A stretch of 54,756 nucleotides of DNA from a virus (taxonomy: Duplodnaviria > Caudoviricetes). Below the pieces are notes generated by a model that did not search any database, was not told the origin of the DNA, and was given only the letters and a program-made list of their open reading frames with translations. Every line of letters starts with the position of its first letter. Position 1 is the stretch's first letter. The position numbers and the translations under genes were made by a program. The stretch is from the IMG/VR virus record IMGVR_UViG_3300046716_000023, positions 1 to 54,756 of that record; one strand, written 5' to 3'. Positions 27,929 to 51,872 of the stretch are shown piece by piece.

Positions 27929-29408
27929 ACGTCATCACTCCTTCTCGACCGAGCTTGGCCTCGGTGTCGGTCTTGGTCTGCAGTCGGAACCCGTAGGTCT
28001 CCATGAACTTCACGAAGCCCTTCTCGGTCCAGTAGTGGAAGTGCTCGTCCGGACGGAAGTGCTTCGAACCGAGGACGTGGTTGCCGTCCTCGAAGATCGG
28101 CAGCGTGACCACCACGCCGCGGCGGATCTTGTGGAGCAGGGCGTCGAGCTCAAGGGAGGGGATGTGCTCGAGAGAGTCCCAGAACGTCGCGACGTCGACT
28201 TCCTCGATCTTCTCTGCGAGACGCCCGAGATAGCGAAGCTTCTCGATCGTCGCGGGATTGATGTCGATGCCGAGGGCCTTGGTGGACTTCACGAACTGAC
28301 AACTGCCGGGACCCACGTCGAGCAGGATCCCTTCGATGCCGGGGAAGTGACGGTGCAGGATGTCCACGCGGAAGTTGTTGAGCTTCTTGCCGAGCTCCGT
28401 CCCCTCGTAGTTCTCGTACTTGTGGAAGTACTCCTTGTTGTACTGGCCGTTCACGTGGACCGGGTAGTAACCGTACTCCCCTTCCCACTTGAGCAGCTGG
28501 CGACAGGCGACATCGCGGAACGCGGCTTCGACTTCTCTCGGATCGAGCTTCTTGTTGCAGGGTGGGTTGTCACCCGTGTGGCGCGAGGTGACGCCGCACT
28601 CGCACATCGGCTTCGGCTCGACAGCGCGGTACGGGGATCCTCCGCTACCTTCGACCATCCAAGGTTCCACCAGCAAACGGTCAGGGACGTCGCCACCGTA
28701 GAGACAGACGGTTGGGGTCCTCAGAGCGATCCCGAGCGGGAGCATGAAGCCCACGCTGGTGACGATGACGTCGGCGACAGCCATCAGTCCGATGAGCTGC
28801 TCCGTGGTGAACTGACCGTGCATCATGGAACGGGTGACGCCCGTGAGGGGAGCGCCATACCGAACCTCGTGAGGCTCCGCGAGCCATCCGAGCTCCCACC
28901 ACTCGAACTCCTGGTGCTGGTCCACGAGCTGCTGCATGTACAACGGCTCGTTGCCCCGTGCTGCGTTCGGCCACTCGGTCCGGACCGTCGGCGGATGAAC
29001 GAGAGCGAGCGGACGATCCTTCGGCTTGACGGAGTTCGCCCACTCGATCCATTCGGGCTTGGCGATGTACGTGAAGTCCACGGGTCCGGGAGTGAAGCCC
29101 GCGTTGTCCATGAGGGCGGACGTGATCGGCATGCCTCTGCTGAAGTCCGCCGTTCCGTAGCGCAGATGCCGGCGCTCGTACGGGGACTCCGGATTGGCGT
29201 CGTACGTTCCCTCCCACTTGGAGATGTTCGCTGCCTGCGTCCGGAGTCCGGTCTCCGTCCTCAGGATCTTGACCGGGAGATCCCACCAGAGTTGGGGCCA
29301 CGAGGTGCGGACCCAGACCTCCCAGCCCTGGAGGAGACAAGCCCGCGCGACCACGCGCTGATACGCGTTGTCTCCGAGTCCGTGCATGCACTCCAGGATC
29401 AGTCGCAT
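27912..29408 (-). CDS. GT9/heptosyltransferase-like glycosyltransferase fused to a class I methyltransferase
   Basis: HGLGD, LMAVADVIVT...ALRTPTVCLYG; C-terminal LLDVGPG and TFWDSLEHI. Confidence 0.8.
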   Translation of the reverse strand: MRLILECMHGLGDNAYQRVVARACLLQGWEVWVRTSWPQLWWDLPVKILRTETGLRTQAANISKWEGTYDANPESPYERRHLRYGTADFSRGMPITSALMDNAGFTPGPVDFTYIAKPEWIEWANSVKPKDRPLALVHPPTVRTEWPNAARGNEPLYMQQLVDQHQEFEWWELGWLAEPHEVRYGAPLTGVTRSMMHGQFTTEQLIGLMAVADVIVTSVGFMLPLGIALRTPTVCLYGGDVPDRLLVEPWMVEGSGGSPYRAVEPKPMCECGVTSRHTGDNPPCNKKLDPREVEAAFRDVACRQLLKWEGEYGYYPVHVNGQYNKEYFHKYENYEGTELGKKLNNFRVDILHRHFPGIEGILLDVGPGSCQFVKSTKALGIDINPATIEKLRYLGRLAEKIEEVDVATFWDSLEHIPSLELDALLHKIRRGVVVTLPIFEDGNHVLGSKHFRPDEHFHYWTEKGFVKFMETYGFRLQTKTDTEAKLGREGVMTYVFNR

Positions 29409-29566
29409 CCGAACACCTTCTTGAACTTGGCCCACTCTTCTGGGGTCGCGACCTTCTTGTACTCATTCGCGTACAGCATGAAGATGTGCCAGATACGCGG
29501 ATAGAGGAATAGGGAGCGCAGCAGGCTCTTGCCGAACTTCTTCCAGAGCGCTCCCTTGTATGTCAC
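29399..29566 (-). CDS. hypothetical protein (55 aa)
   Basis: Translated by hand, VTYKGALWKKFGKSLLRSLFLYPRIW...; fills the gap. Confidence 0.5.
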   Translation of the reverse strand: MTYKGALWKKFGKSLLRSLFLYPRIWHIFMLYANEYKKVATPEEWAKFKKVFGCD

Positions 29567-30580: not shown

Positions 30581-32053
30581 TTACTTGGGAGCTGCGCCGA
30601 CGCGTTCGCCGACCACCTTGTTGGGATCCTTCGGCGGGACGAGCGCTTCGTCGTCCCCATCCTCTTCCCTGTTCAACTGCTCACGATCGAAGTCCAGGCC
30701 TTCCTCTTCCGCGACCGTGCGACGCGACTTGATCTTGCCCTTCACCATGAGGTCATTCGAGCGGACGATGGAGAACCGGTCGCGGGACTGGACGGCGGGT
30801 CCGGTGACCTTGTACTTCAACGTCGGGTCGAGGAGCTTCGTGGACAGACGTCCGGAGATGATGCCGATGAAGATGATCCGCTTGTAGAGGTCGCGGAGAC
30901 GGGAAGCGTACCACTTCTGCGTCTTCTGGAACATCTTCATGCCAGGCTGCTCGGCCGCGACGAGGGACGCGTAGTTGGAGGAGCTGGCGTTCGCCGAGAA
31001 CAGGAACTCCGGCTGTGAGACGCGGCACGCGCAGGCGCGCAGCAGTGTGTCAATCACCGTGGCGAGCTTGTCCGCGGACTGCGCCGCGATGGGGAAGTGG
31101 TACTTCTGACCAGGCGGGACGTCAAGGATGCTGCCAGCCTGGATCACGCGCTGCCGGATCGACTCACCTGAGGTGGAGTCGCGCGGCGTACGCTGCGCCA
31201 TGTTGTCCGCGAGCTGGGCGATCTTCGAGCCGGTTGTGCCATCGGGGTGCTCGCGAACCACCGCGATGGCGGCCTGGATCTCCGCCATCTTGCGGATCAC
31301 GCGGAGCATCTTCTTCGCACCCTCCAGGGGTTCGACCACGGGGAGGAAGGTCGGGATCCCACGGAGCACGTTGCGGTCGGTGTTCTTCTTGAAGAACGTG
31401 ATCTCTTCGGCCGGGATGATGACTTCCTGACCGGTGCCACCCTGCTTGTAGACGTACCCGATCACCTTCTGCTTGTCGCCGGCGCGGGTCACCATGCCGT
31501 ACTCGAACGCCGGATCGGAGGAGTCGATCTCCTCCGGCTCGATGAAGCGGACGGTGGCGAGGCCGTCCATCTCCATGAAGGTCCGGACGAACGCCTCACC
31601 CTCGCGGTCCGACCGGAGGATGACCTCGTGCTCGACCTCGTCCCACTTCTCCGTCTCGTGGAACTCCTCCCAGTAGTCGTCCGCGGCGGCGATCGCCTTG
31701 GCGAACGTGGAGCGCTGGCGCTTGTCCTGGATCTTGTAGGCGAACCCCGTACCGGCGACGAAGTTCTGGATGTTCTGGTGACCGTTGATCGCGTAGGGGT
31801 TCGTGAACGCGAGCTTCCTGCCGAGCTGACGCCAGTTCGTCAGGGCCGACATGTTGTTGATCGTGCCCGGGATCCCGAGCGGGGAGACGTCCATCCAACC
31901 TTCGAAGCGTTCGGTGGGGTTCACCCACCGATCCATGTACCACTCCCAAGACTCGTAGGCCTTGAGGAGGATCTCCTGCCGCTTGATGAGCGCGGCCTCG
32001 CTGGCCTGCGCGAGACGGTTCACAGCGACGGGGTCGATGGCGATGTCGGTCAC
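30581..32053 (-). CDS. portal protein
   Basis: Follows terL by GTGA; RSDREGEAF, RGIP and SSSNYAS motifs. Confidence 0.9.
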   Translation of the reverse strand: MTDIAIDPVAVNRLAQASEAALIKRQEILLKAYESWEWYMDRWVNPTERFEGWMDVSPLGIPGTINNMSALTNWRQLGRKLAFTNPYAINGHQNIQNFVAGTGFAYKIQDKRQRSTFAKAIAAADDYWEEFHETEKWDEVEHEVILRSDREGEAFVRTFMEMDGLATVRFIEPEEIDSSDPAFEYGMVTRAGDKQKVIGYVYKQGGTGQEVIIPAEEITFFKKNTDRNVLRGIPTFLPVVEPLEGAKKMLRVIRKMAEIQAAIAVVREHPDGTTGSKIAQLADNMAQRTPRDSTSGESIRQRVIQAGSILDVPPGQKYHFPIAAQSADKLATVIDTLLRACACRVSQPEFLFSANASSSNYASLVAAEQPGMKMFQKTQKWYASRLRDLYKRIIFIGIISGRLSTKLLDPTLKYKVTGPAVQSRDRFSIVRSNDLMVKGKIKSRRTVAEEEGLDFDREQLNREEDGDDEALVPPKDPNKVVGERVGAAPK

Positions 32054-33639
32054 GCGACCTCCAGGATCGTGGCGGGGCTTTCGCGGGATCGGTCGTAGTA
32101 GTGGGTCACCCACTCGAAGATGCAGGTCTGCAACATCTCGAGGGCGTCGGGGCCGTCGTCGTGGTCACCGTACCCAGTCTCCATGATCTGCTTCACGAGG
32201 GTCTTCATGTCGCGGGTCTGACGTGCGAACTTGAAGGTTCCCTTGGAGAGCGGGGATCCGAGACGCTCGATGCGCGTGGGCTTCGGGCACGAGTGCTGGA
32301 TCTCGAGGACGGGGAGGGAGATGCCGCGAGCGGTGGACTCGGACTGAAGCTGCTGCGCCATCGTGATCTGGAAGGCGTTCGACTCGAAGGCGCAGAAGAC
32401 GTAGTTCCGACGTGCGTGCATGTTCAGGATGCGCGGGATGATCTCCGCATGCGGGATACGCTGGACGATCCCGTCGATGTAGTAGTGCCGATTGCCCGGC
32501 TTCCAGAAGCCCTCGAGGATTGCAACGAAGTCACCCTTCTTCGCGTCGTTGCCTGTGCTCGGGTCGACAGCGAGGAACGGGTAGGCGCCATGCGGGATGG
32601 TGTCGTACCAGATGTCGTAGGCGTCGGTAAACCACATCTCGTCGAACACCGCGTGCGCGGGGTTCATCGGCGAGTTCTGCTTCTCCGCCATGAAGGCGCC
32701 GTGACCACCTTCGGCGCGCATCACCATCAGGTCGTAGAGGGACTCACGCTCGGGCCACAGGACGACTGCGCCCTCGTTGAGCTCTTCCTCGTACTTCTCG
32801 TAGTACGACCTAGCGACGCTCGGGTCGTCGAAGTAGAACTTTTCCCATTCCTCCCAGCTCGGTTGGTAAGGTTGACCCTCGCCTGTTGCGACCATGCGGA
32901 GCGGCCACACGACGATCGACTGGAACCGACGGTGTTCCCAACCCGGTCGTTCCAGTAGTCCCGCCATAAGGCAAGCAGAGTTGATCAGGGTGCCGTTCAC
33001 GAAGAAGTTCGTTCCCGGCTGGCCCGCCTTGAGAACACCAGCATCCAGCCACTGGCGAATCCTCTCTCGGACGATCGGAGAGCGAGCACCCTCGTCGTTC
33101 TCGGGGTCGTCGATCATCACCACGGTGGGGCGTGACTCTTCGTGGCGACGACCGCGGACCTTCTTGCCGGCACCCAGGGCATCGATGCGGACGTTGTTCC
33201 GCGTGATGATGCTCTCTTTGCTCCACAGTGAGGAACCCTTGCCAACGACGTGCGGGTAGTCCTCGGCGAGCAGCTCGTTGGTCTCGAGCTCTTCCTTGAC
33301 GTGAGAGAGGTGCTGGGCGGACTGGGAGAACGTGTCAGCGCCCGTGACGATGTACCGCTCTAGACCTTCGCAGGTCCACCAGAGCGGAGCGGCGAAGGAG
33401 CAGATCGTGGACTTGGCGCTGCCTCGGGGACCGGCGATCGCGGATTTGACGTTCCGCGTGAAGGTCGCGACTTGGAGGTGCTGGATCAATTCCTTGTGGA
33501 ACATCGAGGGCGGAGCGGTGAAGTAGTGGCCGAGGTACTTCTTGATGAAGGTCTCGAGGGTGATGTTCCCTCCGCGCAGACCCCGAGCCATCGCCTTGAA
33601 GAAGTGCTGCTGGACCTGCTGGCTGGTGGCGAGTCTCAC
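32050..33639 (-). CDS. terL: terminase large subunit
   Basis: GPRGSAKST Walker A, VMIDDPE Walker B, nuclease motifs AVDPS and HDDGPDAL. Confidence 0.95.
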   Translation of the reverse strand: MRLATSQQVQQHFFKAMARGLRGGNITLETFIKKYLGHYFTAPPSMFHKELIQHLQVATFTRNVKSAIAGPRGSAKSTICSFAAPLWWTCEGLERYIVTGADTFSQSAQHLSHVKEELETNELLAEDYPHVVGKGSSLWSKESIITRNNVRIDALGAGKKVRGRRHEESRPTVVMIDDPENDEGARSPIVRERIRQWLDAGVLKAGQPGTNFFVNGTLINSACLMAGLLERPGWEHRRFQSIVVWPLRMVATGEGQPYQPSWEEWEKFYFDDPSVARSYYEKYEEELNEGAVVLWPERESLYDLMVMRAEGGHGAFMAEKQNSPMNPAHAVFDEMWFTDAYDIWYDTIPHGAYPFLAVDPSTGNDAKKGDFVAILEGFWKPGNRHYYIDGIVQRIPHAEIIPRILNMHARRNYVFCAFESNAFQITMAQQLQSESTARGISLPVLEIQHSCPKPTRIERLGSPLSKGTFKFARQTRDMKTLVKQIMETGYGDHDDGPDALEMLQTCIFEWVTHYYDRSRESPATILEVA

Positions 33640-34286
33640 TTCGAGGTCACCGCATCGACTTGCGCACGGAGCGGTTCACCGGTCAGGCGGGCCGCGATCC
33701 GGTCGACGATCATCTTGCCGTCGGGGTGGTCGTGCAGTTCCTCCCGGACCACGTTGATGAAGCGCTCCGCGATGGCGGCCATCTCCTCGAAGGTGATGGA
33801 CTGATCCTTGGCGTCGATCCAACCAGCGCGAGCCTTGAGCCCGAAGATGACGAGGGCGGGGTGGATCCCGGCTTCCTGGGTCATCGCCTCGTCTTCGAAG
33901 AACGAGGCCTGGTAGTCCTTGACGAGCTGGTCGATCTCCGCGTCCCGGCGCCGCAGCTTGAAGAGCGTGGCGGTCGAGATGTTGATCACCTCGCACAGGG
34001 CTGGGAGCGAGAGCTTCGACTGGGCTGAGAGGAGGAAGCAGAGCTCCCCGCGGACGTTGTGGCTCGTGGCGTTCCCGGAACCCCGACCGTGGGAGGTGTT
34101 CTCCATGATCGCGAGCAGGTCCGCGGCTTGAAGCTTTTTCGGATCTTTGCGGTAATCCGAAAGGAGCTGCTGAGCCTCGCGCTTGAGTTCCGCCAGACGA
34201 GTCTTCCGTCCCTCGAGAAGCGCAAGCTTCGCGTTGGAGTTCGCGCTCTGGATCACAGGACTCGCCGCGCCGCCTTGTCCAGCCAT
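33636..34286 (-). CDS. terS: terminase small subunit
   Basis: Upstream of terL; HTH (LCEVINISTATLFKLR) and ALVIFGLKARAGW. Confidence 0.8.
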   Translation of the reverse strand: MAGQGGAASPVIQSANSNAKLALLEGRKTRLAELKREAQQLLSDYRKDPKKLQAADLLAIMENTSHGRGSGNATSHNVRGELCFLLSAQSKLSLPALCEVINISTATLFKLRRRDAEIDQLVKDYQASFFEDEAMTQEAGIHPALVIFGLKARAGWIDAKDQSITFEEMAAIAERFINVVREELHDHPDGKMIVDRIAARLTGEPLRAQVDAVTSK

Positions 34287-34307
34287 TTGTCCCTTCCGAA
34301 GCCCAGT

Positions 34308-34594
34308 CGTAGCGAGCTCGTAGCGAGTTCGCTACGAGCCTCTCTACTACTACTACTCTACCCCGAAACACTCGCTACGTGATCGAACGAAGTTTCTGGG
34401 CGAGCTCGCTACGAGTTCGCTACGAGTTCGCTGCGTAACGTACCGTACACGGTACGAAGAAGTCAAGAGTGACTTTTCCCTCTCTCTCTATTAGAGACAA
34501 TTCTACTTATAAACTATGGGAAATAAAGGACAAGAAAACATATCTCTCTTCTTCTTTCTATCTTCCGGCGCGAACTCGCTACGAGCTCGCTACG
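34308..34594. repeat. cluster of TCGCTACG repeats (8 exact, 1 with one mismatch), tandem copies at 11-bp period
   Basis: Reverse at 34308 and 34319; forward at 34329, 34372, 34406, 34417, 34576, 34587; TCGCTGCG at 34428. Confidence 0.9.
34481..34555 (-). promoter_or_regulatory. probable leftward promoter, copy A of a duplicated element
   Basis: Shares TCTCTCTCTAT, TTCTACT and TGGGAAATAAAGGACA at identical spacing with 48439-48490; TAGAAT on the minus strand. Confidence 0.55.
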
Positions 34595-34639
34595 CGGAGC
34601 TCGGGCCTCAAACCTCTGAAATTTCCTATAAAATTTTGA

Positions 34640-34721
34640 CACCGAGCACCCCGACCAACTCATCAAATTTACACCCTTTGTCTGTCCACGCACACCGACC
34701 ACCGCGCACCGAGCACCCCGA
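34640..34721. repeat. 15-bp direct repeat CACCGAGCACCCCGA
   Basis: Copies at 34640-34654 and 34707-34721. Confidence 0.85.
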
Positions 34722-34851
34722 TGTACCCGCCAATACCGAGACGGTCAAAGGGCATTCTAGAGGCTATATGTCACATCTATCTTTTAGGTACCATATGTCT
34801 CCTAATGATGGCTCTTCGAATGAGATCCATCATGAGGAGTTGGAGGCTACA

Positions 34852-35028
34852 ATGGGTGAGCTGCTGAGTATGGTCATGACTAGCTGGTATGCAGTAGTGT
34901 GCTGCATGTGTCATAAGACCTTGGAGCTGAAGACTACAGAGGAGGAGCACATGAGGATGAACACCTCTCACACCTACTGTGAGGGGTGCCAGGAGATCAT
35001 GCTGGAACAGATCAAGGAGATGAAGTAA
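34852..35028 (+). CDS. small Zn-finger protein (CCMC...SHTYCEGC)
   Basis: GGAGG RBS; first gene of the rightward block. Confidence 0.65.
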   Translation: MGELLSMVMTSWYAVVCCMCHKTLELKTTEEEHMRMNTSHTYCEGCQEIMLEQIKEMK

Positions 35029-35029
35029 G

Positions 35030-35311
35030 ATGCTACCAGGCAAGCACAACAAGTGTACTAAGACATGGTACATGATCCTCATGTGGGACAAGGACAGGAA
35101 CATCTACATGTGGTGTTCCAATGAGAGATGGAAGGATGTAGACTGGTCCAAGCCTAGTGTATGGACCAAGGGTGAGGTAGCTCGAGAGTGGAGCAGGGTC
35201 AATCGTAGTCTGGACAGATATGGAGATCATGAGTTCAGGCTCATCAATCTCCATGAGTGTGGTGAGCCAGAGCTGATCATACAGATGGTGATCAATAGAC
35301 ATGGGGACTAA
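35030..35311 (+). CDS. hypothetical early protein
   Basis: Abuts the previous gene; Trp-rich. Confidence 0.6.
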   Translation: MLPGKHNKCTKTWYMILMWDKDRNIYMWCSNERWKDVDWSKPSVWTKGEVAREWSRVNRSLDRYGDHEFRLINLHECGEPELIIQMVINRHGD

Positions 35312-35373
35312 CAACAGTCCTACCATGCATCTCAAGAGGGGAGCTTGGCTCCCAGAGGAAGGAGGTGATATAC

Positions 35374-35565
35374 ATGTACAGAGTAAAGTGTCAGTCCAGT
35401 GATGGAACTGATCTCTACTACCTGGACTTCGTGCTTGGTAAGCCCATAGCGCTCAAGCTTGAAGCGAAGGACCAGATCAAGCCTATGTGCGAAGAGTACG
35501 CTGATGAGTACATCAGCATGCTCGTCGGCCCAGAAGGCATGGTCCTGGTGAAGGAAGAAGCGTAG
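35374..35565 (+). CDS. hypothetical early protein
   Basis: AAGGAGGTGA RBS. Confidence 0.7.
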   Translation: MYRVKCQSSDGTDLYYLDFVLGKPIALKLEAKDQIKPMCEEYADEYISMLVGPEGMVLVKEEA

Positions 35566-35876
35566 TGGGTCTGCTCACCCACACGTGGAGTAGCGGAGAT
35601 ACTGTCGTACCACAACCGGAGAAGCAGCGCGCCGACCAACCAATAGACGCTGCGCAACTAGTACGTTCTGCACACAGTGCAGAAAGGATGAGAATGGCCA
35701 AGGTGTATCAGTTCAGGGAACTCGATAAGGACGGAGTCGTGCTCCGCTTCGTGTTCGACCTGGATCGCCGCGAGGCGGTCAAACGCTACTGGGAGTCCAC
35801 CGCATTCACGGTCCAGATGCTCGCCCACAGGCGGGTCATCGCGGAGCGCTCGTGGAAAGGAGTGATGTCATACTGA
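35565..35876 (+). CDS. hypothetical protein (true start may be a downstream ATG)
   Basis: ORF in the chain. Confidence 0.5.
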   Translation: MGLLTHTWSSGDTVVPQPEKQRADQPIDAAQLVRSAHSAERMRMAKVYQFRELDKDGVVLRFVFDLDRREAVKRYWESTAFTVQMLAHRRVIAERSWKGVMSY

Positions 35877-36082
35877 CGATCTTCTGCTACGCGAACGAGA
35901 TCGAGTTCCGAGAGGAGCTCGATCTCATCGCTGCGAACAAGGACCATCACATGTGGTTCAACCCGGAGGAACTCGAGGAGAACTGGGTTGAAGCACTGGA
36001 AGCTGCGGACTTGGTCTACAGCTACTTCGTGGCGCTGGACATGAACATGAACGTGGTGCGAGAGCACACAAGGAGGGACTAG
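35852..36082 (+). CDS. acidic hypothetical protein
   Basis: ORF in the chain; E/D-rich. Confidence 0.55.
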   Translation: MERSDVILTIFCYANEIEFREELDLIAANKDHHMWFNPEELEENWVEALEAADLVYSYFVALDMNMNVVREHTRRD

Positions 36083-36083
36083 C

Positions 36084-36404
36084 ATGCTGCTCTGGCTCAA
36101 GAAGCTCCTCAAGCCCAAGTGGCTTCTCGAGGAGGTGTGCGATGAGTGCTACGAGCGCCACTATTGTGGTGGCTGCGGACGTGGCATCGACTGCTTCGCT
36201 GGCTACTTCTACACGTACGCGGGAGCTGAGAAGGCTGCGCGTGAGTGGGTCGAACAGCAGCGTGGTGAGGACACGGACACCGAATACGAGGTGATCGTGA
36301 CCAAGCGTCCCGAGAACATCATCGTGTCGTTGCGATACGACACCAAGACCAAGAGCGGTGAGTGCACGATGTCCGCTCTCATCAGCGAAAGGAGATACTG
36401 GTAA
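36084..36404 (+). CDS. hypothetical protein (CxxC...CxxC)
   Basis: AGGAG RBS. Confidence 0.65.
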   Translation: MLLWLKKLLKPKWLLEEVCDECYERHYCGGCGRGIDCFAGYFYTYAGAEKAAREWVEQQRGEDTDTEYEVIVTKRPENIIVSLRYDTKTKSGECTMSALISERRYW

Positions 36405-36799
36405 TGTTCGTACACTTCCAGACCCATCACTGGGGTCTCGGATGCTGGACCAGCGGCTGGAGATGCGAGACTGAGGAAGAAGCGATGCGTCGCTTCGATC
36501 TCGTGACTCGACACCCGAGCGGCTGGTATCAGTACGACTGCTACGAGCTGAAGAAGTCCGGCAAGGACGACATCAGTCTCGCGGGTGAGATCTACGTGGT
36601 GAAGTGGTATCAGCGGAGACTGCCGCAGTACTGCACACCGCCCGAGAAGCTGTGGACCCACTTCGCAACCCACGTTCCGCGTGGAGCGAGGTGGAACAGG
36701 CACTACCGAGCGTGGGTGGACCACGACGGACACTACTACTGGCCGGTCAAGCTGACGATCGTCAGGCACTTGGCCTCAACGTGGAAGGAGCGTGAATGA
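36404..36799 (+). CDS. hypothetical protein, aromatic-rich
   Basis: TAATG coupling and AAGGAG RBS. Confidence 0.65.
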   Translation: MFVHFQTHHWGLGCWTSGWRCETEEEAMRRFDLVTRHPSGWYQYDCYELKKSGKDDISLAGEIYVVKWYQRRLPQYCTPPEKLWTHFATHVPRGARWNRHYRAWVDHDGHYYWPVKLTIVRHLASTWKERE

Positions 36800-37173
36800 G
36801 CATCAAGCACAGCTGGCCCGAGCGTCTCATCGAGACGATCGTGGACGGCAAGGTGGTCGAGAGCCACGTGGCTCCCGCAGAAGAGAAGTGGTCGAACTAC
36901 GATCTCGAATTCGTGGTCGACCAGACAAAGTGGGACGAGAACCGACAGGCGGACTCGGACACCGATGCTGACGAAGAGTTCGACTTCCCCACGACCGTCG
37001 AGGTCAAGGAAGACGGCTTCAATCAGCAGATCCCGTGGGGTGCGAGTGGCACTCAGATGGAGATCTACGAGAAGGTCGAGGACATGCTGAAGGAATGGCT
37101 GAACCTCGTCCTCAACAACGACTGCAAGGACCGCAAGGTGCGGTTCATCATCTCCGTCACTGAGGCGGAGTAG
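36796..37173 (+). CDS. acidic hypothetical protein
   Basis: ATGA coupling and AAGGAG RBS. Confidence 0.7.
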   Translation: MSIKHSWPERLIETIVDGKVVESHVAPAEEKWSNYDLEFVVDQTKWDENRQADSDTDADEEFDFPTTVEVKEDGFNQQIPWGASGTQMEIYEKVEDMLKEWLNLVLNNDCKDRKVRFIISVTEAE

Positions 37174-37185
37174 TCCCTTTCTCTC

Positions 37186-37214
37186 CGACCTGAGCATGTC
37201 AATAAACTGCTCAG
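37186..37214 (+). ncRNA. intergenic 29-nt repeat, copy 1 (predicted H-type pseudoknot)
   Basis: CGACCTGAGCATGTCAATAAACTGCTCAG. Confidence 0.65.
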
Positions 37215-37227
37215 AAAGACTCTAGCT

Positions 37228-37521
37228 ATGGGCGACACTCAGAAGAACACCGAGGGCAATCTCCCGGGCGTGATCGACACGCACGAGGTGACCCTTAAGA
37301 TCCGGGTCCCGAACAAGCCGAACATGACGGCGGACGGACTCACGGAGTTCCCCTGCACCGCGGTGTTGGTCTACTCGAACGGGACGCGCGTCGTGCTGCC
37401 GATCAGGCAGGCGAAGCCGTCCAAGGCGTCGGGCAAGCTCAACGCGTGGGGCGGTGGGAAGATGGCTCTCGAGGACAACACGCAGGTGATCGTCGGGATC
37501 AACCTGACGGTCATGGAGTAG
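37228..37521 (+). CDS. small beta-rich protein, paralog 1 of 38610-38963
   Basis: 64/80 identical residues over the shared C-terminal domain. Confidence 0.85.
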   Translation: MGDTQKNTEGNLPGVIDTHEVTLKIRVPNKPNMTADGLTEFPCTAVLVYSNGTRVVLPIRQAKPSKASGKLNAWGGGKMALEDNTQVIVGINLTVME

Positions 37522-37548
37522 TAGCTGCTCGCTCGGTTCTCAACTCTT

Positions 37549-37577
37549 CGACCTGGGCATGTCAATAAACTGCCCAA
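37549..37577 (+). ncRNA. intergenic repeat, copy 2
   Basis: CGACCTGGGCATGTCAATAAACTGCCCAA; compensatory A-U to G-C change relative to copy 1. Confidence 0.65.
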
Positions 37578-37791: not shown

Positions 37792-37802
37792 TCTGAACCC
37801 TT

Positions 37803-37831
37803 CGACCTGGGCATGTCAATAAACTGCCCAG
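37803..37831 (+). ncRNA. intergenic repeat, copy 3
   Basis: CGACCTGGGCATGTCAATAAACTGCCCAG. Confidence 0.65.
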
Positions 37832-37841
37832 AAAGGTGCGC

Positions 37842-38147
37842 ATGCCGCACATCAAGGAGAAGAACGTCAACGCCGCCCAGAAGAAGGCGGACAAGTTGGA
37901 CGTGGACGAGCTGAAGAAGCTCACCATCGAGCAGGTCGCCGGACTGGCGCTGCAGGTCGACGCGACCGAGAAGGCTCTGAAGGAGCAGGCGCGGATCGTG
38001 AAGCAGCACGTGCACAAGGTCTACGGACCGCTGTGCGCGAAGAAGAAGGAGCTGGAGATCGAGTACGCCTTCCTCGTGGCCAAGCTCGAGAAGGTCAAGG
38101 AGATCAACCCGGCCATCGCCGCGATCTCCAAGCTCGCGGGTCTCTAG
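37842..38147 (+). CDS. basic coiled-coil hypothetical protein
   Basis: AAAGGT RBS after the repeat; strong codon bias. Confidence 0.7.
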   Translation: MPHIKEKNVNAAQKKADKLDVDELKKLTIEQVAGLALQVDATEKALKEQARIVKQHVHKVYGPLCAKKKELEIEYAFLVAKLEKVKEINPAIAAISKLAGL

Positions 38148-38497: not shown

Positions 38498-38609
38498 ATG
38501 TCGATGAGAGGTGCAGTCAGTAGGGCCGGCGCTGAGTATGTGCTCTGCCCACCCGACCGATGCAGCCCGACACGGCATGCACAGGAGCCGGTAGAACCGG
38601 TAGCGTATC

Positions 38610-38963
38610 ATGGGTGAAGTGAACAAGCAGTCCGAGGGCGCGGTCGGTGGCGGAAGCCCGGTGAAGGGACCCAACACGCCGTTCGCCACGAAGAAGGGGA
38701 ACGAGGTCGTGATCCCCGAGACCCACGAGGTGACCGTCAAGGCGCGCATCGCCAAGGCGCCGAACCTCTCGGTCGACGGGCTCACCGAGTTCCCCTGCGC
38801 CGCCATCCTCGTCTACGCCAACGGCACCCGCGTGGTGCTCCCCATCCGCCAGCCGAAGCCGTCGTCGGCCTCGGGCAAGATCAACGCGTGGGGCGGCGGC
38901 AAGATGGCGCTCGAGGACAACACGCAGGTGCAGGTGGGCATCAACCTCACCGTGATGGAGTAG
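38610..38963 (+). CDS. small beta-rich protein, paralog 2
   Basis: Paralog of 37228-37521; almost all third positions are G/C. Confidence 0.85.
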   Translation: MGEVNKQSEGAVGGGSPVKGPNTPFATKKGNEVVIPETHEVTVKARIAKAPNLSVDGLTEFPCAAILVYANGTRVVLPIRQPKPSSASGKINAWGGGKMALEDNTQVQVGINLTVME

Positions 38964-38990
38964 TCCTCCAAGCGACCCAGCAGTACACGA

Positions 38991-39023
38991 CCCACCCACC
39001 CGGCGGAAGCCGGGTGCGGTGGG
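38991..39023 (+). terminator. GNRA-capped hairpin without U-tract
   Basis: CCCACC-CACCCGGC-GGAA-GCCGGGTG-C-GGTGGG. Confidence 0.5.
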
Positions 39024-39091
39024 CTGTGCCATTTCCCGGCTAGCGGCCGGCCTACGGTGGCAGGTAGTCACCATCACGGAGGGTAGAACCC

Positions 39092-39343
39092 TTGGCCAAG
39101 AAGGACGAAGTCGACCCCGCTCTGAAGCGCTGGGTCACTGCACACATGCCAGACAAAGCTGGCCCTCCGCCCGAGAAGGCGGACACCTCGTACACCATCT
39201 ATGTCTCCAAGTCGGAGGCAGAGCGCATCGCGAAGTGCCAGCGTGAGTTCGGCACGACGCGTCAAGAGGTCCTCCGCCGACTCGTTCAAGCGGGTCTGAA
39301 GCAGCTCGGCATCGCCACTGGATGGTGGACCGATGGCGAGTAG
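39092..39343 (+). CDS. ribbon-helix-helix-like DNA-binding protein
   Basis: YTIYVSKSEAERIAKCQREFGTTRQEVLRRLV pattern; TTG start with GGAGG. Confidence 0.6.
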   Translation: MAKKDEVDPALKRWVTAHMPDKAGPPPEKADTSYTIYVSKSEAERIAKCQREFGTTRQEVLRRLVQAGLKQLGIATGWWTDGE

Positions 39344-39584
39344 AACCATCCACGTCCGTGCGTACGACCGGACCATGGGCACTGCGTACCCGAAGTGGAT
39401 CCTCATCAACATGCCGGGTCACGGACTCGGTCGAGCGCTGGTCGACATCCGTAAGGCTCGCTGGACCGATGACCTCGGGCAAGCGAAGCTGTACTTCCGG
39501 AACCGACTCAAGAGGTTCTGCAAGGAGCAGTATGGTGAGGACTGGGAAGACAACCCGAACCTCATCCTGCTGGCGGTGAGGTAG
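39333..39584 (+). CDS. hypothetical protein
   Basis: ORF chain. Confidence 0.6.
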   Translation: MASRTIHVRAYDRTMGTAYPKWILINMPGHGLGRALVDIRKARWTDDLGQAKLYFRNRLKRFCKEQYGEDWEDNPNLILLAVR

Positions 39585-39805
39585 TGTGGATCCTCATCCT
39601 CTACTCCAACGGTGAGATCGTCCAGATCCACCTGTTCGAGGAGATCCACAAGGCCAGCCGCATGGCTCGAGACTGGGTCGGTGAGTCCGCATGGAACTCC
39701 GACTGGGTTCTCCTGCCTGAGGTCGAAGAGTCCGCCTCGTACTACTGCGAGGACGGGAACTCGAAGATGGCTGTGTGGGCACGACGGGAGGTAACCCCGC
39801 GATGA
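39584..39805 (+). CDS. hypothetical protein
   Basis: ORF chain. Confidence 0.6.
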   Translation: MWILILYSNGEIVQIHLFEEIHKASRMARDWVGESAWNSDWVLLPEVEESASYYCEDGNSKMAVWARREVTPR

Positions 39806-40026
39806 CCCACTGCCAGATCTCGAGATGCGATGCATGCCTCGCGCTCTCAGCCATCTGCATGAGGATCCGGACTCTCAAGAAGATGACCGGACCCCAGCGT
39901 CTCCTCGACATCGTCCGCTTCCCCAACGCCTACCCGTACGACGACCTCGTCGCGCACGCTAGGCGGATGACTGCGGCGGGTCACCGCGTGAAGTACAGCC
40001 GGTGGAAGGGAAGGCGAGAGATATGA
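39802..40026 (+). CDS. hypothetical protein
   Basis: GGAGG RBS and ATGA overlaps. Confidence 0.6.
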   Translation: MTHCQISRCDACLALSAICMRIRTLKKMTGPQRLLDIVRFPNAYPYDDLVAHARRMTAAGHRVKYSRWKGRREI

Positions 40027-40262
40027 GCTTGCGATCCCAGCTGCGAAGGGTGGATCAGCTCACCCACGTCTACATCGCGACCTTCTGGTCCGATAGGAAG
40101 ACAGGCTTCACGGAGATCTTCCGATCCCTCGAGTCCGCTCAGCGCTTCTGCAAGCGGAAGAAGTGGAAGTCCTTCGGCACGACCTCGGGTACCACGTGGG
40201 TTTGTGAGACCACGCTCGGGATCTACAAGATCCGGAGGAGGAAGATCCGTGGCCGCGCGTAA
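40023..40262 (+). CDS. basic hypothetical protein
   Basis: ATGA overlap. Confidence 0.55.
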   Translation: MSLRSQLRRVDQLTHVYIATFWSDRKTGFTEIFRSLESAQRFCKRKKWKSFGTTSGTTWVCETTLGIYKIRRRKIRGRA

Positions 40263-40446
40263 CCAGTGCTCGCAGTGCAAAGAGCGGGCGAAGCTCTGCC
40301 GCAAATGCAGAACCTTCCTCTGCCATCACCACTACGTGAACCACTCGTGCATGATCGACCGTGGGGATCTCGATGATCCCAGCGAAGCGGTCATGGCGTA
40401 CCAGATCCGTCGCGACGAGGAGTTGCGGCGAGAGGAGGACCTGTGA
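40249..40446 (+). CDS. small Cys/His-rich (AN1/B-box-like) Zn-finger protein
   Basis: CSQC...CRKC...LCHHH...HSC. Confidence 0.55.
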   Translation: MAARNQCSQCKERAKLCRKCRTFLCHHHYVNHSCMIDRGDLDDPSEAVMAYQIRRDEELRREEDL

Positions 40447-40754
40447 TCCCCGGAGATTTCAAGGCTGAGTTGGACCGCATCTGCGCTCTCTTTGCGCAGA
40501 CGGAGCGGAAGCTCAACGAGGAGCTCATCATCAAGAAGCGCTTCTCGTGGAAGCACGACGCGCTCGAATACCCGATGCACTTCGAACCCCTGAAGGGTCG
40601 GTGGCGCATCTTCTACGGCGACAAGCCGATCAACGACTGTTCCGCGGTCGAGAAGGTCGACGTGGCGGAGGTCCTGGACAAGTTCGAGGAGGCGTACATC
40701 GCCGACCTCAACATGCTGGCCGAGAGGGCCAAGAAAGCGGGGAGGAAGGAATGA
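40443..40754 (+). CDS. hypothetical protein
   Basis: GAGGAG RBS and overlaps. Confidence 0.65.
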   Translation: MIPGDFKAELDRICALFAQTERKLNEELIIKKRFSWKHDALEYPMHFEPLKGRWRIFYGDKPINDCSAVEKVDVAEVLDKFEEAYIADLNMLAERAKKAGRKE

Positions 40755-40987
40755 GCACGCTCCAGATCAAGGTTCGAGCCAAGAACCTCGGCGGGGAGCA
40801 CATCCACATCGACTTCTGGGAGCGCAAGCTCCCGTCGGAGACGTGGCAGAAGAACGGGACCATCATCATGAGTCCCGTCCTCGCCGTCCTGTTCCTGTGC
40901 AGGATCTCTCCTAGCACCAAAGAGAACCCCGACATCGTCGGGGACAAAGAGATCGAGTTCACCGTCAACTGGGAGGTCCCGTCATGA
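40751..40987 (+). CDS. hypothetical protein
   Basis: ATGA overlaps. Confidence 0.6.
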   Translation: MSTLQIKVRAKNLGGEHIHIDFWERKLPSETWQKNGTIIMSPVLAVLFLCRISPSTKENPDIVGDKEIEFTVNWEVPS

Positions 40988-41775: not shown

Positions 41776-42029
41776 GACACCTCGTCATCATCCGCAACCA
41801 CATGACCCCGCTCGAGATCGACGTCCCACCGGTCGTCAAGTCGTTCAGGGAGGTCGAGCAGTACATCCAGAACCTCCTCGGTGGCGTGATCCTCGTGGGG
41901 TTCGTGGAGGTCCACGATCCCGAGATCCGGACCTGCCACGCGTGCAAGGGGTCCGGGATCTATCGATCGGTCAACAAGCTCGTCGAGGTCTGCACGTGCC
42001 TCAAGGCGATCGGGATCACACGCCAATGA
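41772..42029 (+). CDS. hypothetical protein with CxxCxGxG motif
   Basis: GTGA/ATGA overlaps. Confidence 0.6.
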   Translation: MRHLVIIRNHMTPLEIDVPPVVKSFREVEQYIQNLLGGVILVGFVEVHDPEIRTCHACKGSGIYRSVNKLVEVCTCLKAIGITRQ

Positions 42030-43640: not shown

Positions 43641-43685
43641 GTGGTCTTGCCTTCCTTGCGGTGGTTCTCTTCTGTCGCCTGTGGA

Positions 43686-48653: not shown

Positions 48654-49478
48654 ATGCAGGGCTTCGATCAGTTGTACCCCGCTCTCGTGAAGCGAGCCTG
48701 GGATCACGGAGCACATCGCACGGCACGGGGAAAGCCTCATCGTGCGTTGTTCAACGTGGTGATCGACACCCTCGCCGTGGAGAACCTGATCGTCGGTGGC
48801 GGCTTCCAGAAGAAGTTCGCGATCGCCGAGCTGATGGCGTACGCTGCGGGTTGGGACGACGTCGCGTGGCTGGCGCGGTTCAACAAGAACATCGCCCAGT
48901 TCTCCGATAACGGCGTCTCGTTCTACGGCGCGTATGGTCCCCGGATGACGTGGGCAATGGGAGCTCTTGTCACACTGCTCACGGAAGACCCGGAAACCAG
49001 GCAGGCGATCTGCCAGATCTACGCACCGGAGGATCTGACTGCCGAGTCGAAGGACAAGCCATGCAACACGATGTTCCAGCTCCAGTCCTCCAAGACCGTG
49101 AACGGAACCGTGGAACTCCACATGACGATCTACCAGAGGTCCTGCGACCTGGTGTGGGGTTTGCCCTACGATCACTTCAGCTTCTCCACGCTCCTGATCC
49201 TGTTCGCGTATCAGCTTCGTATGCAGCCTGGTCGCGTGACGCGAGTGATCGCGAACGCGCATGTCTACGAGCCCGAAGCTGGTTTCGCTAACGAGGGTCG
49301 TCTCGCGAGAGCGATGCAGCCCATCGAGACCATGTTCTGGGAACCGCCGAGTGGCGGACTGTTCGCATTCCGCGAGACATGTCAGATCGCCCGTTACCAG
49401 ATCGAGGGCAAGCACGATCCTCTGACCGAAGAGGAGTTCACGGCTGACGCCCGCTTCCTTGTGGAGATCCTGAAATGA
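48654..49478 (+). CDS. thymidylate-synthase-fold enzyme, probable dCMP (hydroxy)methyltransferase
   Basis: GAYGPR, TRQA, KDKPC (catalytic Cys), QRSCDLVWGLPYD and AHVYE; Asp at the substrate-specificity site. Confidence 0.85.
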   Translation: MQGFDQLYPALVKRAWDHGAHRTARGKPHRALFNVVIDTLAVENLIVGGGFQKKFAIAELMAYAAGWDDVAWLARFNKNIAQFSDNGVSFYGAYGPRMTWAMGALVTLLTEDPETRQAICQIYAPEDLTAESKDKPCNTMFQLQSSKTVNGTVELHMTIYQRSCDLVWGLPYDHFSFSTLLILFAYQLRMQPGRVTRVIANAHVYEPEAGFANEGRLARAMQPIETMFWEPPSGGLFAFRETCQIARYQIEGKHDPLTEEEFTADARFLVEILK

Positions 49479-50398
49479 GACTGATCCTCGAAGGCATCGA
49501 TGGGGTGGGCAAGTCCTCCATCCTCGAGAAGATCGAGAAGTCGCATCGCGTGAAGTCGATCCACCTCGTGAAGCCGCCGAAAGGTGTGACGCCTCACAAG
49601 TGGTCCGACTACTTCCGCGAGGCGTACGACAACAACGAACTTCTTTCGCGGTCCCACATCTCCGAGCGGGTCTACGGGACTCTGATCCGGAACCGCTCCC
49701 TCATCGACGACTGGCAGAACTGGCTGCTCAACCTGCAGCTGGAGGTTCGCGGCTTCCGGATCGCGTACATCGTCCGGAGCCTGAGCCACGTCGAAGAGCA
49801 GATCATGAAGCGCGGCGCCGCAGCCAGCGACTACGATCTGTGGGTCGTGAAGAACTGGTTCGCGATGGGGCAGGCGTATGAGAAGTTCCTTCCCCGTCAC
49901 CTGACCCACATGATCCACAACGAGGGTCAGCTGCAACAGGCGGTCGAGCAGGCGGTCACCGTGGGCGTCAGTCCGCTCTGGACGAACCACACCGACCTCC
50001 GTGGGATCGGTTCGCTCACCCCGAAGGTGGTGCTCGTCGGGGACGAGTTCACGCTCCGTCGCCGAGATTTCGCTCACGCGAAGCCCTTCGACTTCGGCGA
50101 AGCCTCCAAGATGCTCTTCGAGGCCTTGAACCAACTGCGTCACATCTACATCACCAACTCCCGCTACGACGACCTGGGTGACATCCGCTCCCAGTTCCAG
50201 CTCCGTGACGAACTCACTCGCTTCGCGGGTGCGAAGATCATCGCGCTTGGAGCCGACGCTGCCAAGCGTCTCAAGATGCTCGGCTTCGAACCCCACCAGA
50301 TCATGCCACATCCGCAGTATTGGCGACGCTTCAAGTACGCCGACCGTGGATCGTACGTCAACGACCTGAAGCAGGTGGCGGAGAACTTCCATGGATAA
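49475..50398 (+). CDS. dNMP kinase fused to a uracil-DNA-glycosylase-fold domain
   Basis: LEGIDGVGKS and RSHISERVYG; then VVLVGDE, KPF, YITN, IIALG and PHPQY. Confidence 0.75.
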   Translation: MRLILEGIDGVGKSSILEKIEKSHRVKSIHLVKPPKGVTPHKWSDYFREAYDNNELLSRSHISERVYGTLIRNRSLIDDWQNWLLNLQLEVRGFRIAYIVRSLSHVEEQIMKRGAAASDYDLWVVKNWFAMGQAYEKFLPRHLTHMIHNEGQLQQAVEQAVTVGVSPLWTNHTDLRGIGSLTPKVVLVGDEFTLRRRDFAHAKPFDFGEASKMLFEALNQLRHIYITNSRYDDLGDIRSQFQLRDELTRFAGAKIIALGADAAKRLKMLGFEPHQIMPHPQYWRRFKYADRGSYVNDLKQVAENFHG

Positions 50399-50873
50399 GA
50401 CGCAACTCATCGCCGTCCTGTCCTCGTTCGGTGAAGCCGAGGCGATCGCGGAAGTGATCCATGCCTCGCTCCCGCTCCGTGAACCGCTTCCCTCGAAGCG
50501 TCGCACCGAGCGCAAGACCGTGCTGGTCAACGAGATCGTGGTCGAGGTAGAGGTAGGCTTCTACCCCGACGATCGTCCCGGCGAGGTGTTCCTGAAGGCC
50601 TCCAAGTACGGGACGATGATCCGCGACATCTACGACGGTCTCGCGATCACGCTCTCCATCGCGCTGCAACATGGCATCCCGCTCTCCAGCTTTCCGGTTC
50701 GAGGTCGTGGTAACGAACTCACCGGCGAGGGGAACGAGTTGCTGGACACGATCTTCGAGACCGTGGAGGAACTGTGCACCACTCCGAAGCCGACTACTTC
50801 ACCGACCGCGTCCGCGAGTTCCACGTCAAGCACGGAGCTCCCGTCAACGTCGGAGTCACCCTCGCAGCACTGA
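50391..50873 (+). CDS. stand-alone class II RNR C-terminal (TSCPD-like) domain
   Basis: GFYPDDRPGEVF and AITLSIALQHGIPL. Confidence 0.7.
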   Translation: MDKTQLIAVLSSFGEAEAIAEVIHASLPLREPLPSKRRTERKTVLVNEIVVEVEVGFYPDDRPGEVFLKASKYGTMIRDIYDGLAITLSIALQHGIPLSSFPVRGRGNELTGEGNELLDTIFETVEELCTTPKPTTSPTASASSTSSTELPSTSESPSQH

Positions 50874-51322
50874 CGCTGCGCAAGAGTCTGGTCTACGAGG
50901 AGGCTTCCGAAATTCTCCTCGCGGTCCACGACAGGGACGAGGTGGAGTTCGTCGACGGCATGGCGGACCTCATCTACGTCGCCGCGGGCACGTGGGTGTC
51001 GGTCTCCACGATGAAGCACCCCAGGCGGTTCAACCTGAACCCGCTGAAGGGAGTCCACGAACTGTGGGATCCCAAGTTCATCAGCGTGATCCATCACCGG
51101 ATCGACAAGGTCCTCGAGAGCGTGATGAAGCACCGCTACTCTGAGGCGATCTACCACGCGGTCGCGCTCCCACACGAGCTGGGGTACGACCCGAAGGCGA
51201 TCTTCGACGAGATCCACGCCAGCAACATGACCAAGACGCCCACGAAGGGCGACATCAGGGTGCGCGTCAAGGGTCCCGACTACCGGGCCCCGGACGTCAC
51301 CCGTTTCTTGAGAGGGAGGTAG
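50774..51322 (+). CDS. MazG-like / PRA-PH-family dNTP pyrophosphatase
   Basis: VREFH, EEASE, DGMADLIYV, FDEIHASNMTK and KGPDY. Confidence 0.85.
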   Translation: MHHSEADYFTDRVREFHVKHGAPVNVGVTLAALTLRKSLVYEEASEILLAVHDRDEVEFVDGMADLIYVAAGTWVSVSTMKHPRRFNLNPLKGVHELWDPKFISVIHHRIDKVLESVMKHRYSEAIYHAVALPHELGYDPKAIFDEIHASNMTKTPTKGDIRVRVKGPDYRAPDVTRFLRGR

Positions 51323-51325
51323 TCC

Positions 51326-51472
51326 GTGGAGGAGTTCCTGCAGCAGATCAAGATGACCCTCGAGACGCACATGAACTGCGAGGTCGAGGTCGTCGGCGAG
51401 AGCGAGCTCTCCATCTCCACCGAGGAGAACGGCGAGACGAAGACGTACACGATGACGGTCCGCGAGGACTGA
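51326..51472 (+). CDS. acidic hypothetical protein (48 aa)
   Basis: Translated by hand; GGAGG RBS. Confidence 0.55.
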   Translation: MEEFLQQIKMTLETHMNCEVEVVGESELSISTEENGETKTYTMTVRED

Positions 51473-51473
51473 C

Positions 51474-51872
51474 GTGAAGGACAAGCTCCTCCGTCTGCAC
51501 GCAGACTTCGCCACGCGAGTGGCGGAGCTGTCGCACTGCGTTCGTCAACAGAACGCGTGCGTGCTGACGTCCCTCGACGGGGAGCGGGTCCTGGCATTCG
51601 GTTACAATGGGACGTGGAGGGGTGGACCCAACACGTGCACAGGTCCCAACGAACCGGGGCGCTGCGAGTGCATCCACGCCGAGGTGAATGCCCTCATCAA
51701 GTCGCGAGCTCAAGAGGACTTCGCCGCCTTCGTCACCACGAGCCCTTGCGTGAACTGCGCACGGTGCCTCGTCAACTCGGGGTGCAAGATGGTGATTTGC
51801 GGACAGGCGTACAGGGTCACCGATGGTGTGACGCTACTTCAGGGCGCTGGAGTGGAGGTTTCCTTTGTCTGA
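51474..51872 (+). CDS. dCMP deaminase-family protein
   Basis: GYNG, HAE and SPCVNC. Confidence 0.9.
   Translation: MKDKLLRLHADFATRVAELSHCVRQQNACVLTSLDGERVLAFGYNGTWRGGPNTCTGPNEPGRCECIHAEVNALIKSRAQEDFAAFVTTSPCVNCARCLVNSGCKMVICGQAYRVTDGVTLLQGAGVEVSFV

Follow-up and report, generated by a model that had tools for sequence, protein, structure and literature searches.

Why should a single dinucleotide be almost absent from one 0.7-kb block of a phage genome that is otherwise rich in it? The question is raised by a soil phage (Duplodnaviria; Caudoviricetes) represented by IMG/VR record IMGVR_UViG_3300046716_000023, a circular assembly of 54,756 bp (its apparent terminal repeat is a 24-bp overlap), which was analysed at its full length and is called the window below. 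An earlier note on this DNA had described an almost CpG-free island at 34744-35429 and had seen only three CG dinucleotides in it, at 34817, 35183 and 35204, each within TCG; our recount returns exactly these three. From the base composition of the 686 bp (200 A, 128 C, 199 G and 159 T; 47.7% GC) 37.1 CG are expected, which gives an observed/expected ratio (O/E) of 0.08, in a genome with 61.2% GC and 6006 CG (O/E 1.17 for the whole record). GpC is retained, as the note had also stated (26 occurrences, O/E 0.70), and TG and CA are in excess (O/E 1.45 and 1.61, respectively). In the sliding-window check that the note had proposed (600-bp windows, 200-bp steps) the CG O/E falls to 0.09 in the island, compared with a 5th percentile of 1.00 and a median of 1.18; the lowest window outside the neighbourhood of the island has 0.93. 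Gaps without CG are longest in the island, where two of 366 and 226 bp occur; the next in rank in the genome measure 111 and 84 bp. The island spans a putative early promoter, a leader, gene 1, gene 2 and the initial 56 nt of gene 3, and forms the first fifth of a rightward operon of small genes. The features of the island and its surroundings are as follows.

34738..34753, plus strand: conserved motif GAGACGGTCAAAGGGC; it contains the final CG ahead of the island and defines the left boundary
34743..35429, no strand assigned: CpG-poor island, 3 CG in 687 bp, delimited by a maximum-scoring segment search
34784..34794, plus strand: anchor motif TTAGGTACCAT, the invariant block of the alignment in all six loci
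34799..34839, plus strand: leader stem-loop of about 16 pairs, an inverted repeat between the anchor and the Shine-Dalgarno sequence of gene 1
34852..35028, plus strand: gene 1, 58 amino acids (aa), CxxC...CxxC, Zn-ribbon-like, 0 CG; the sole island gene common to all lineages
35030..35311, plus strand: gene 2, a 93-aa orphan, 2 CG; its slot is filled by an unrelated gene in each lineage
35339..35353, plus strand: hairpin GGGAGC-TTG-GCTCCC, with a strong Shine-Dalgarno sequence, before gene 3
35374..35565, plus strand: gene 3, 63 aa, CG-free over the first 56 nt, with 8 CG in the remainder
island start to ~38.2 kb, plus strand: small-gene operon of 3.4 kb, from gene order

The CG pattern of gene 3 places the right edge of the island inside this gene. 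For comparison we used six IMG/VR loci found by their TerL (71-91% identity); L004 equals L005 here and L006 is close to L007, which leaves four lineages besides the window.

Codon-level specificity of the depletion

The earlier note had itself named GC content and amino-acid use as a possible explanation. We compared the genes with a codon-aware null, which leaves each protein unchanged and samples its codons 2000 times according to their usage in 23 well-supported genes. Gene 1 contains no CG where 9.3 ± 1.9 are expected, and gene 2 contains two where 22.4 ± 2.6 are expected; the lowest draws held 3 and 13 CG, respectively, so that the null never reached the observed counts and this explanation falls away. 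Gene 3 is half depleted (8 CG against 15.7 expected, z -3.5) and carries all of its CG after 35430, in line with the gradual return of CG that the note had described from there on, and the null fits gene 4 (19 CG against 20.9 expected) and gene 5 (29 against 33.2). Across the five lineages the depletion z under the same null lies between -5 and -8 for the island genes; the gene that follows them scores -2.6 to -3.5 in all lineages but L003, where it scores +0.6; for gene 4 it is -0.8 in the window and -2.4 in L002, and further on it is about 0.

CG is depleted in all three codon-position classes, including CG that straddles a codon boundary. In the island genes pooled from five lineages, C-ending codons make up 24 of 128 pyrimidine-ending codons (19%) before G, but 213 of 310 (69%) before other bases (Fisher p 3e-22), while in the rest of the genome this share is 78-80% before G and before other bases alike. 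As C-ending codons are still preferred except before G, the codon dialect of the island is the native one, minus CG. Arg is encoded 24 times by AGR and 9 times by CGN in the island, whereas AGR accounts for 13% of the Arg codons genome-wide. The proteins are affected as well: Arg (0.49-fold), Gly and Pro are each about halved, and Met (3.1-fold), Cys (4.4-fold) and Tyr (2.4-fold) are enriched. The pooled islands have a CG O/E of 0.21, compared with 1.11 immediately downstream, and show no depletion of GC, CC or GG; every NCGN flank class is depleted, by 5.6- to 11.5-fold. General avoidance of restriction sites could be rejected because six-base palindromes without CG occur at the expected frequency (42 seen, 45.4 expected); GATC is still enriched. 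The depletion thus concerns CG alone, operates on the nucleic acid both within codons and over their boundaries, is bound to position and weakens away from the putative promoter. Of the 46 CG that survive in the pooled islands, 33 are TCG on the coding strand, and most are TCG or CGT. This bias follows from codon structure, since NTC before G is kept where TT is avoided, and since CGY Arg codons are two steps away from AGR.

An excess of TG and CA (1.51 and 1.39 in the pooled islands) is also what a local mutational bias would leave behind, i.e. additional CG-to-TG/CA transitions confined to some 700 bp, for instance in a single-stranded terminal repeat or a heavily transcribed leader in combination with deamination of modified C. 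The shift in protein composition towards Met, Cys and Tyr and away from Arg has the direction that deamination predicts, and the two sharp edges would suit a discrete repeat unit. However, if all C were modified, deamination would have no preference for CG, and GC, CC and TC are undepleted; C-ending codons remain favoured away from G; and the use of AGR for Arg together with the selective retention of NTC before G is compatible with avoidance that spares protein function. In the subset of the open reading frames (ORFs) of the genome that was scanned, we found neither a C5 DNA methyltransferase domain nor a CpG methyltransferase. We know of no mechanism that is both CG-specific and limited to 700 bp, and regard this explanation as improbable. 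Vertebrate-type CpG depletion resembles the island in its loss of CG, its excess of TG and CA and its preference for AGR Arg codons; it is, however, genome-wide and mutational, whereas the island covers 0.7 kb only, in a genome whose CG O/E exceeds 1 and whose scanned ORFs yielded no such enzyme.

A further compositional trait of the island is a scarcity of TT (O/E 0.43, compared with 0.61 just downstream and 0.88 genome-wide) and of AA (0.61, compared with 0.79 and 0.89); AATT, TTAA and TATA are rare. This scarcity may reflect avoidance of AT-tracts bound by nucleoid silencers, or of pyrimidine-dimer sites.

Position of the island in related phages

The earlier note had suggested looking for the same island with different genes in related phages, and this is what we found in all four further lineages. 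Every relative has a single island in the corresponding place, 642-741 bp long and containing 8-13 CG. Relative to the anchor motif, the islands of the six loci (five lineages) extend from about -40 to between +650 and +720; the anchor-aligned CG density per 50 bp is 0.3-1.2 from 0 to +650, 3.2 at +650 and 4.5 at +700. L003 carries an extra gene and has a longer island, which ends at a gene end. The record that contains L002 (G001, 54,248 bp, complete, ~80% nucleotide identity) has exactly one island, and each complete genome has a single CG-poor window of this kind. Judged from these alignments, the depletion is maintained across lineages whose TerL identity is as low as 71%.

What is maintained in place is not a set of genes. 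Only gene 1 is shared (56-74 aa across lineages), and in an all-against-all blastp comparison the six other island genes of the five lineages showed no similarity to one another. Gene 1 matches only 5 clusters among 5.8 billion proteins and no Pfam or PHROG family above threshold; its AlphaFold model (predicted local distance difference test score, pLDDT, 77.7) gave no significant fold against the PDB, the best hits being Zn domains of the Fur family at E 0.5. Gene 2 has no relative among viral contigs and no Pfam or PHROG family. Taken over all island genes, the Pfam and PHROGs searches returned a single sub-threshold PHROG of unknown function. The idea that the island proteins are acidic 'DNA mimics' was considered and found unconvincing, with isoelectric points of 4.1-7.8.

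Could the block have been imported recently as a cassette from a low-CpG donor? Its lower GC content (48% against 61%) and its orphan genes would agree with this. The earlier note had argued that an import should shift composition broadly rather than remove one dinucleotide; it was right that the island is not an import, but the GC content does fall here. About half of this fall is due to the missing CG by our own arithmetic (~183 CG lost in 3491 pooled bp, five lineages). Against an import, five lineages have this island in the corresponding position with unrelated genes, codon choice within it is native except where CG is concerned, CG is equally missing from the non-coding leader and from the conserved gene 1, and searches of phage records, viral contigs and protein clusters gave no match to a donor, so that the close donor match which the note had considered was not found. 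Furthermore, homology between the window and G001 is lost at 35022 and returns at 35592, and the CG edge at 35430 thus falls inside the non-homologous segment 35023-35591. A pair of homologues on either side of the edge is equally telling: gene 3 of L006 and gene 5 of the window (43% identity, E 4e-16) start at +559 and +1300, respectively, and the former lacks CG throughout its first 90 nt and encodes a conserved Arg by AGA, whereas the latter has 4 CG in its first 90 nt and encodes the same Arg by CGT. An edge within a non-homologous segment, together with a gene family that is CG-free only inside the zone, indicates that the depletion is imposed in place and not imported; a recent import is effectively excluded.

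The left edge of the island coincides with a putative promoter. GAGACGGTCAAAGGGC, at this edge, is unique in the genome at zero mismatches and conserved in the window, L002, L003 and L004; the last CG upstream of the anchor lies ~40 bp before it. The anchor TTAGGTACCAT, present as a single exact copy in the window, is likely to be GG followed by TACCAT, a -10-like element of the putative early promoter, because it is invariant and of the same form as the GG-TAG(A/T)AT elements assigned to other promoters of the genome. A sigma-70 consensus scan of 34000-36000 called no promoter, the anchor included. The anchor is followed by the leader stem-loop (fold energy -19.8 kcal/mol, z -1.4) and by a strong Shine-Dalgarno sequence before gene 1; L006 has a leader hairpin of its own (z -2.2), and the leaders of the remaining loci fold weakly. 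In a close relative assembled from public run X2, 34599-34740 (140 bp with CACCGAGCACCCCGA-type repeats) is swapped for 127 unrelated letters, and homology restarts at 34740, coinciding exactly with the island's left edge.

As the island starts near the expected transcription start and has an extent on the scale of a transcript, a constraint on RNA is conceivable, by which the early transcript would escape CG-directed RNA cleavage or sensing in its initial 650 nt, or would stay weakly structured there for fast translation. The strand asymmetry of the surviving CG (the 33 of 46 that are TCG on the coding strand) may be quoted in its favour, but it is accounted for by codon structure. Moreover, CG is also missing from the ~40 bp that precede the -10-like motif, an edge inside gene 3 would leave whole messages unprotected, and GC and GG stacks, which stabilize RNA structure equally, are undepleted. 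No bacterial CG-specific RNase is known to us, and we give this explanation little credence.

At the right edge we found no motif common to the lineages besides the Shine-Dalgarno sequence. The window (35339-35373) and L004 have the hairpin and a AAGGAGGTGATATACATG linker in common, yet their third genes are unrelated; from its sequence, this shared linker looks like a joint for cassette exchange. It may be compared with the PeSL cassettes of T4-like phages, in which each ORFan lies between an early promoter and a stem-loop; a repeated promoter, as in those cassettes, was not found here (sigma-70 scan of 34000-36000; single copy of the anchor in the window).

Is the island confined to this clade? 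In all, 97 loci were examined, and none of the loci outside the clade with a GC content >0.5 had a ratio of minimum to median window <0.5. A blastn search against 50,697 phage records and a scan of GTDB genomes revealed no (further) relative, and a metagenome scan returned duplicates of three loci and two distant loci only. TerL homologues with 39-87% identity lie on the long contigs P0003, P0005, P0008, P0011-P0017, P0023 and P0029. Searches of the literature (full texts, without supplementary files) yielded no account of a phage with an early block that lacks one dinucleotide.

Predicted cytosine modification and a proposed hazard to first-read DNA

Import, GC content and amino-acid use do not account for the island, and the evidence points to a CG-directed hazard for the DNA that is read first. 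The earlier note had considered such a hazard if C is modified, and this premise gains support from a group of genes resembling the cytosine-replacement module of T4.

48654..51872, plus strand: predicted T4-like cytosine-replacement module, from domain matches
48654-49478, plus strand: thymidylate synthase (TS)-fold enzyme with Asp for Asn (PF00303, E 5e-22)
49475-50398, plus strand: P-loop kinase-like gene (16.7 bits, Pfam cut-off 27)
50774-51322, plus strand: MazG-like NTP pyrophosphatase (PF01503, 44.6 bits, above cut-off)
51474-51872, plus strand: dCMP deaminase (PF00383, 43.4 bits, above cut-off)

Aligned with solved ThyA, the TS-fold enzyme reads ...GLPYDHFS... against ...GVPFNIAS..., with Asp at the position of an Asn that we take to be the base-selecting residue of ThyA; the significance of Asp at this place is likewise presumed. 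Its nearest phage homologues are pyrimidine hydroxymethylases (≤32% identity). Two of five records, G001 and G002, contain the TS-like gene (73% and 70% identity), and the other three are fragments covering 16-41%. Because this enzyme is accompanied by genes for a MazG-like protein, a dCMP deaminase and a weakly matching kinase, it is likely that C in the virion DNA is replaced by 5-hydroxymethyl- or 5-methylcytosine.

The explanation that we favour, tentatively and at somewhat less than an even chance, is that the promoter-proximal 650-720 bp of the early operon are kept free of CG by selection, directed against modified CpG in whatever DNA is the first to be exposed and expressed. With 5-hydroxymethyl- or 5-methylcytosine in place of C, each CG would be a symmetric modified pair, and such a pair would be a target for type IV nucleases like EcoKMcrA or for another CG-directed host factor. 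DNA that is exposed or expressed before the phage has counter-measures would be kept free of targets, whether it comes first through stepwise DNA entry or merely through early expression. The products of genes 1 and 2, a conserved Zn-ribbon protein and a fast-changing orphan, might be these counter-measures; as they build up, the hazard would drop, giving the gradient over genes 3 and 4. Modification-dependent restriction directed at CpG, which the earlier note had invoked in general terms, does exist: EcoKMcrA is reported to restrict both methylated and hydroxymethylated CpG, favouring fully modified sites 230-fold over hemi-modified ones (PMC7145662), and its target, a symmetric modified CG, is what every CG of a C-replaced phage would present. 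Not every such reader would do. SRA-HNH enzymes of GC-rich actinobacteria are described as binding 5-methylcytosine in all contexts (PMC4333417), and would therefore not single out CG.

Several observations weigh against this explanation. EcoKMcrA prefers Y-CG-R flanks (PMC7145662), but a bias of this kind has left no trace here, as the surviving CG are not biased against YCGR (11 of 46). Genes 1 and 2 match no anti-defence family, nor any other, in family, cluster and fold searches. The modification itself is predicted from genes, and the kinase match stays under the Pfam cut-off. Phage Xp12 (68% GC, all C replaced by 5-methylcytosine) has no island (minimum window O/E 0.72); cytosine replacement alone is thus insufficient to make one, and the proposition that every C-replaced GC-rich phage has an island is ruled out. 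As for the ends of the genome, the earlier note had placed the island at the probable first-ejected end. The assemblies are circular, however, and contigs pass straight across the region (among the assembled contigs of public runs, one from X1 spans 31000-37575, and the X2 relative covers the island), with no physical end or stepwise entry in evidence and no pile-up of starts or ends, which contigs could not reveal in any case. The nearest characterised TerL proteins belong to Mu-like headful packagers (33-35% identity), and headful packaging implies no fixed genome end. If there were an end to the left of the promoter, the CG-rich stretch 34566-34742 would go in first. Finally, static composition cannot tell selection from a local CG-specific mutation bias. 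The record ends of G001 match repeats that are present twice in the early operon of the window (37171-37218 and 37798-37876); the 'terminal repeat' of G001 may therefore be an internal repeat, the record lacking the piece between the copies.

A more specific scheme, possible but in our view rather doubtful, is that of a miniature first-step-transfer (FST) leader: about 0.7 kb would enter or be exposed alone, the Zn-ribbon protein and its swappable partner would disarm a modified-CpG nuclease, and with C fully replaced this would be the sole stretch that has to be CG-free. There are precedents for site avoidance in leading DNA. T5-like phages are reported to be restricted only when sites fall in the FST region (PMC10644984). 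The FST region of T5 and BF23 resembles the island in its small genes, first expressed as those of the island would be, in the selection against sites, proposed for the island as well, and in adjoining a repeat-rich non-coding region; it differs in its size (~8-10 kb), its proven terminal repeat, its proven two-step injection and the avoidance of particular motifs (PMC10644984). Here, by comparison, the block measures 0.7 kb, and a whole word, CG, has been purged. In murciaviruses, absence of a motif from the first-injected region provides escape from the type I system Mme2I, and this leading region is variable and rich in anti-defence genes (PMC12455610). The leading region of Autographiviridae is like the island in lacking a motif and in its variable gene content, but those phages are podoviruses with polar, transcription-coupled entry and avoid one bipartite motif (PMC12455610), whereas the phage considered here is long-tailed, has a lambda-family portal and avoids a dinucleotide.

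A physical cause is also conceivable, with the island being a short exact terminal repeat, or the DNA held in the tail or neck, where doubly modified CG steps would be mechanically unfavourable. The lengths of the islands are alike (642-741 bp) despite differing genes, both edges are sharp, and a collapsed terminal repeat would yield a circular assembly. With ~0.15 nm of tail per tape-measure residue, the 1243-aa tape-measure protein of this long-tailed phage corresponds to a tail ~550 bp long, the same order as the island. On the other hand, the tail tube in the virion is occupied by the tape-measure protein, the right edge has no conserved motif save the Shine-Dalgarno sequence, and L003 with its extra gene has a longer island that ends at a gene end. 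Nothing beyond the rough match in length favours the suggestion, made in the earlier note, that the segment is tuned for passage through the tail, and a physical cause seems very improbable.

Alternatively, the phage may dodge a mark of its own, such as a bulky secondary group placed at CG, or paired modified CG that slows the unmodified host RNA polymerase; a CG-free start would then allow reading by the host enzyme until transcription is adapted by a phage factor (possibly the Zn-ribbon protein). Consistent with this, the island begins at the putative promoter rather than with a gene, only the first genes are covered, with the depletion fading downstream, and several replication and nucleotide-metabolism ORFs have no family match. 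Yet no CG-specific DNA-modifying enzyme was seen among the scanned ORFs, whose methyltransferase domains are generic only (PF13578, PF13489), and CG is normal in the remainder of the early operon (35.4-38.2 kb), for which the same polymerase is presumably responsible. Host polymerase also transcribes T4 DNA in which all C is glucosylated hydroxymethylcytosine. We therefore consider an own mark unlikely, while ranking it above the mutational, RNA-level and physical alternatives.

Compared with the site avoidance known from the first-entering DNA of T5- and T7-like phages, which concerns particular motifs only, the new feature here is that a whole dinucleotide is cut ~5- to 12-fold from a fixed 0.7-kb zone while the genes in it turn over, and that this purge is strong enough to recode Arg and to alter protein composition. 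If a host reader of modified CpG is the cause, the clade-restricted Zn-ribbon protein and its changing partners would be an unrecognised class of early anti-defence genes, and the specificity of the opposing defence would be indicated by the island as well; if the phage's own mark is the cause, the island would reveal a context-specific hypermodification of cytosine. In either case a position-locked purge of one word would show which DNA is exposed first and which word is read by the host defence or carries the mark. Such a signature is computable from sequence alone and could serve, in uncultured phages, to find leading regions and candidate genes for counter-defence.

Control region and neighbouring genes

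To the left of the island, a divergent control region separates it from the packaging genes; to the right, the early operon is followed by a leftward replication block.

27912-29435, minus strand: 507-aa protein among the head genes with a generic S-adenosylmethionine-dependent methyltransferase domain (PF13489, just below cut-off)
30581-32113, minus strand: lambda-family portal gene (PF05136)
32050-33639, minus strand: TerL (phrog_38, E 3e-76)
33636..34286, minus strand: putative terS, named by its position upstream of TerL
34287..34742, no strand assigned: divergent CG-rich control region with repeats, between terS and the island
34305-34339, 34370-34385, 34393-34435 and 34563-34594, both strands: CTCGCTACGAG-type repeats, flanking the AT-rich tract and conserved in relatives
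34455-34566, no strand assigned: CG-free AT-rich tract of 111 bp, resembling the promoter region near 48.4-48.6 kb
within 34599-34740, no strand assigned: three CACCGAGCACCCCGA-type repeats of the control region
38500-48400, minus strand: replication block, holding the following two genes
42711-43640, minus strand: PD-(D/E)XK nuclease (domain scan)
45715-48366, minus strand: primase-helicase, DUF5906/VapE-like (domain scan)
after the leftward replication block, plus strand: nucleotide-metabolism and polymerase block (domain scans)

Family searches (Pfam and PHROGs) gave no match for terS. At least eight copies of the 11-base CTCGCTACGAG-type unit occur in both orientations, some of them as tandem copies spaced by 11 bp; operators, terminase-binding sites or iterons are possible roles. 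The AT-rich tract at 34455-34566 probably drives terS leftward, and 34456-34557 matches G001 at 10110-10214 with 76% identity. Long plus-strand ORFs inside the replication block (e.g. 45607-47517) are probably spurious. Both in and outside the island, GATC and GTAC exceed the first-order Markov expectation, by 1.6- to 1.8-fold and 1.4- to 2-fold, respectively.

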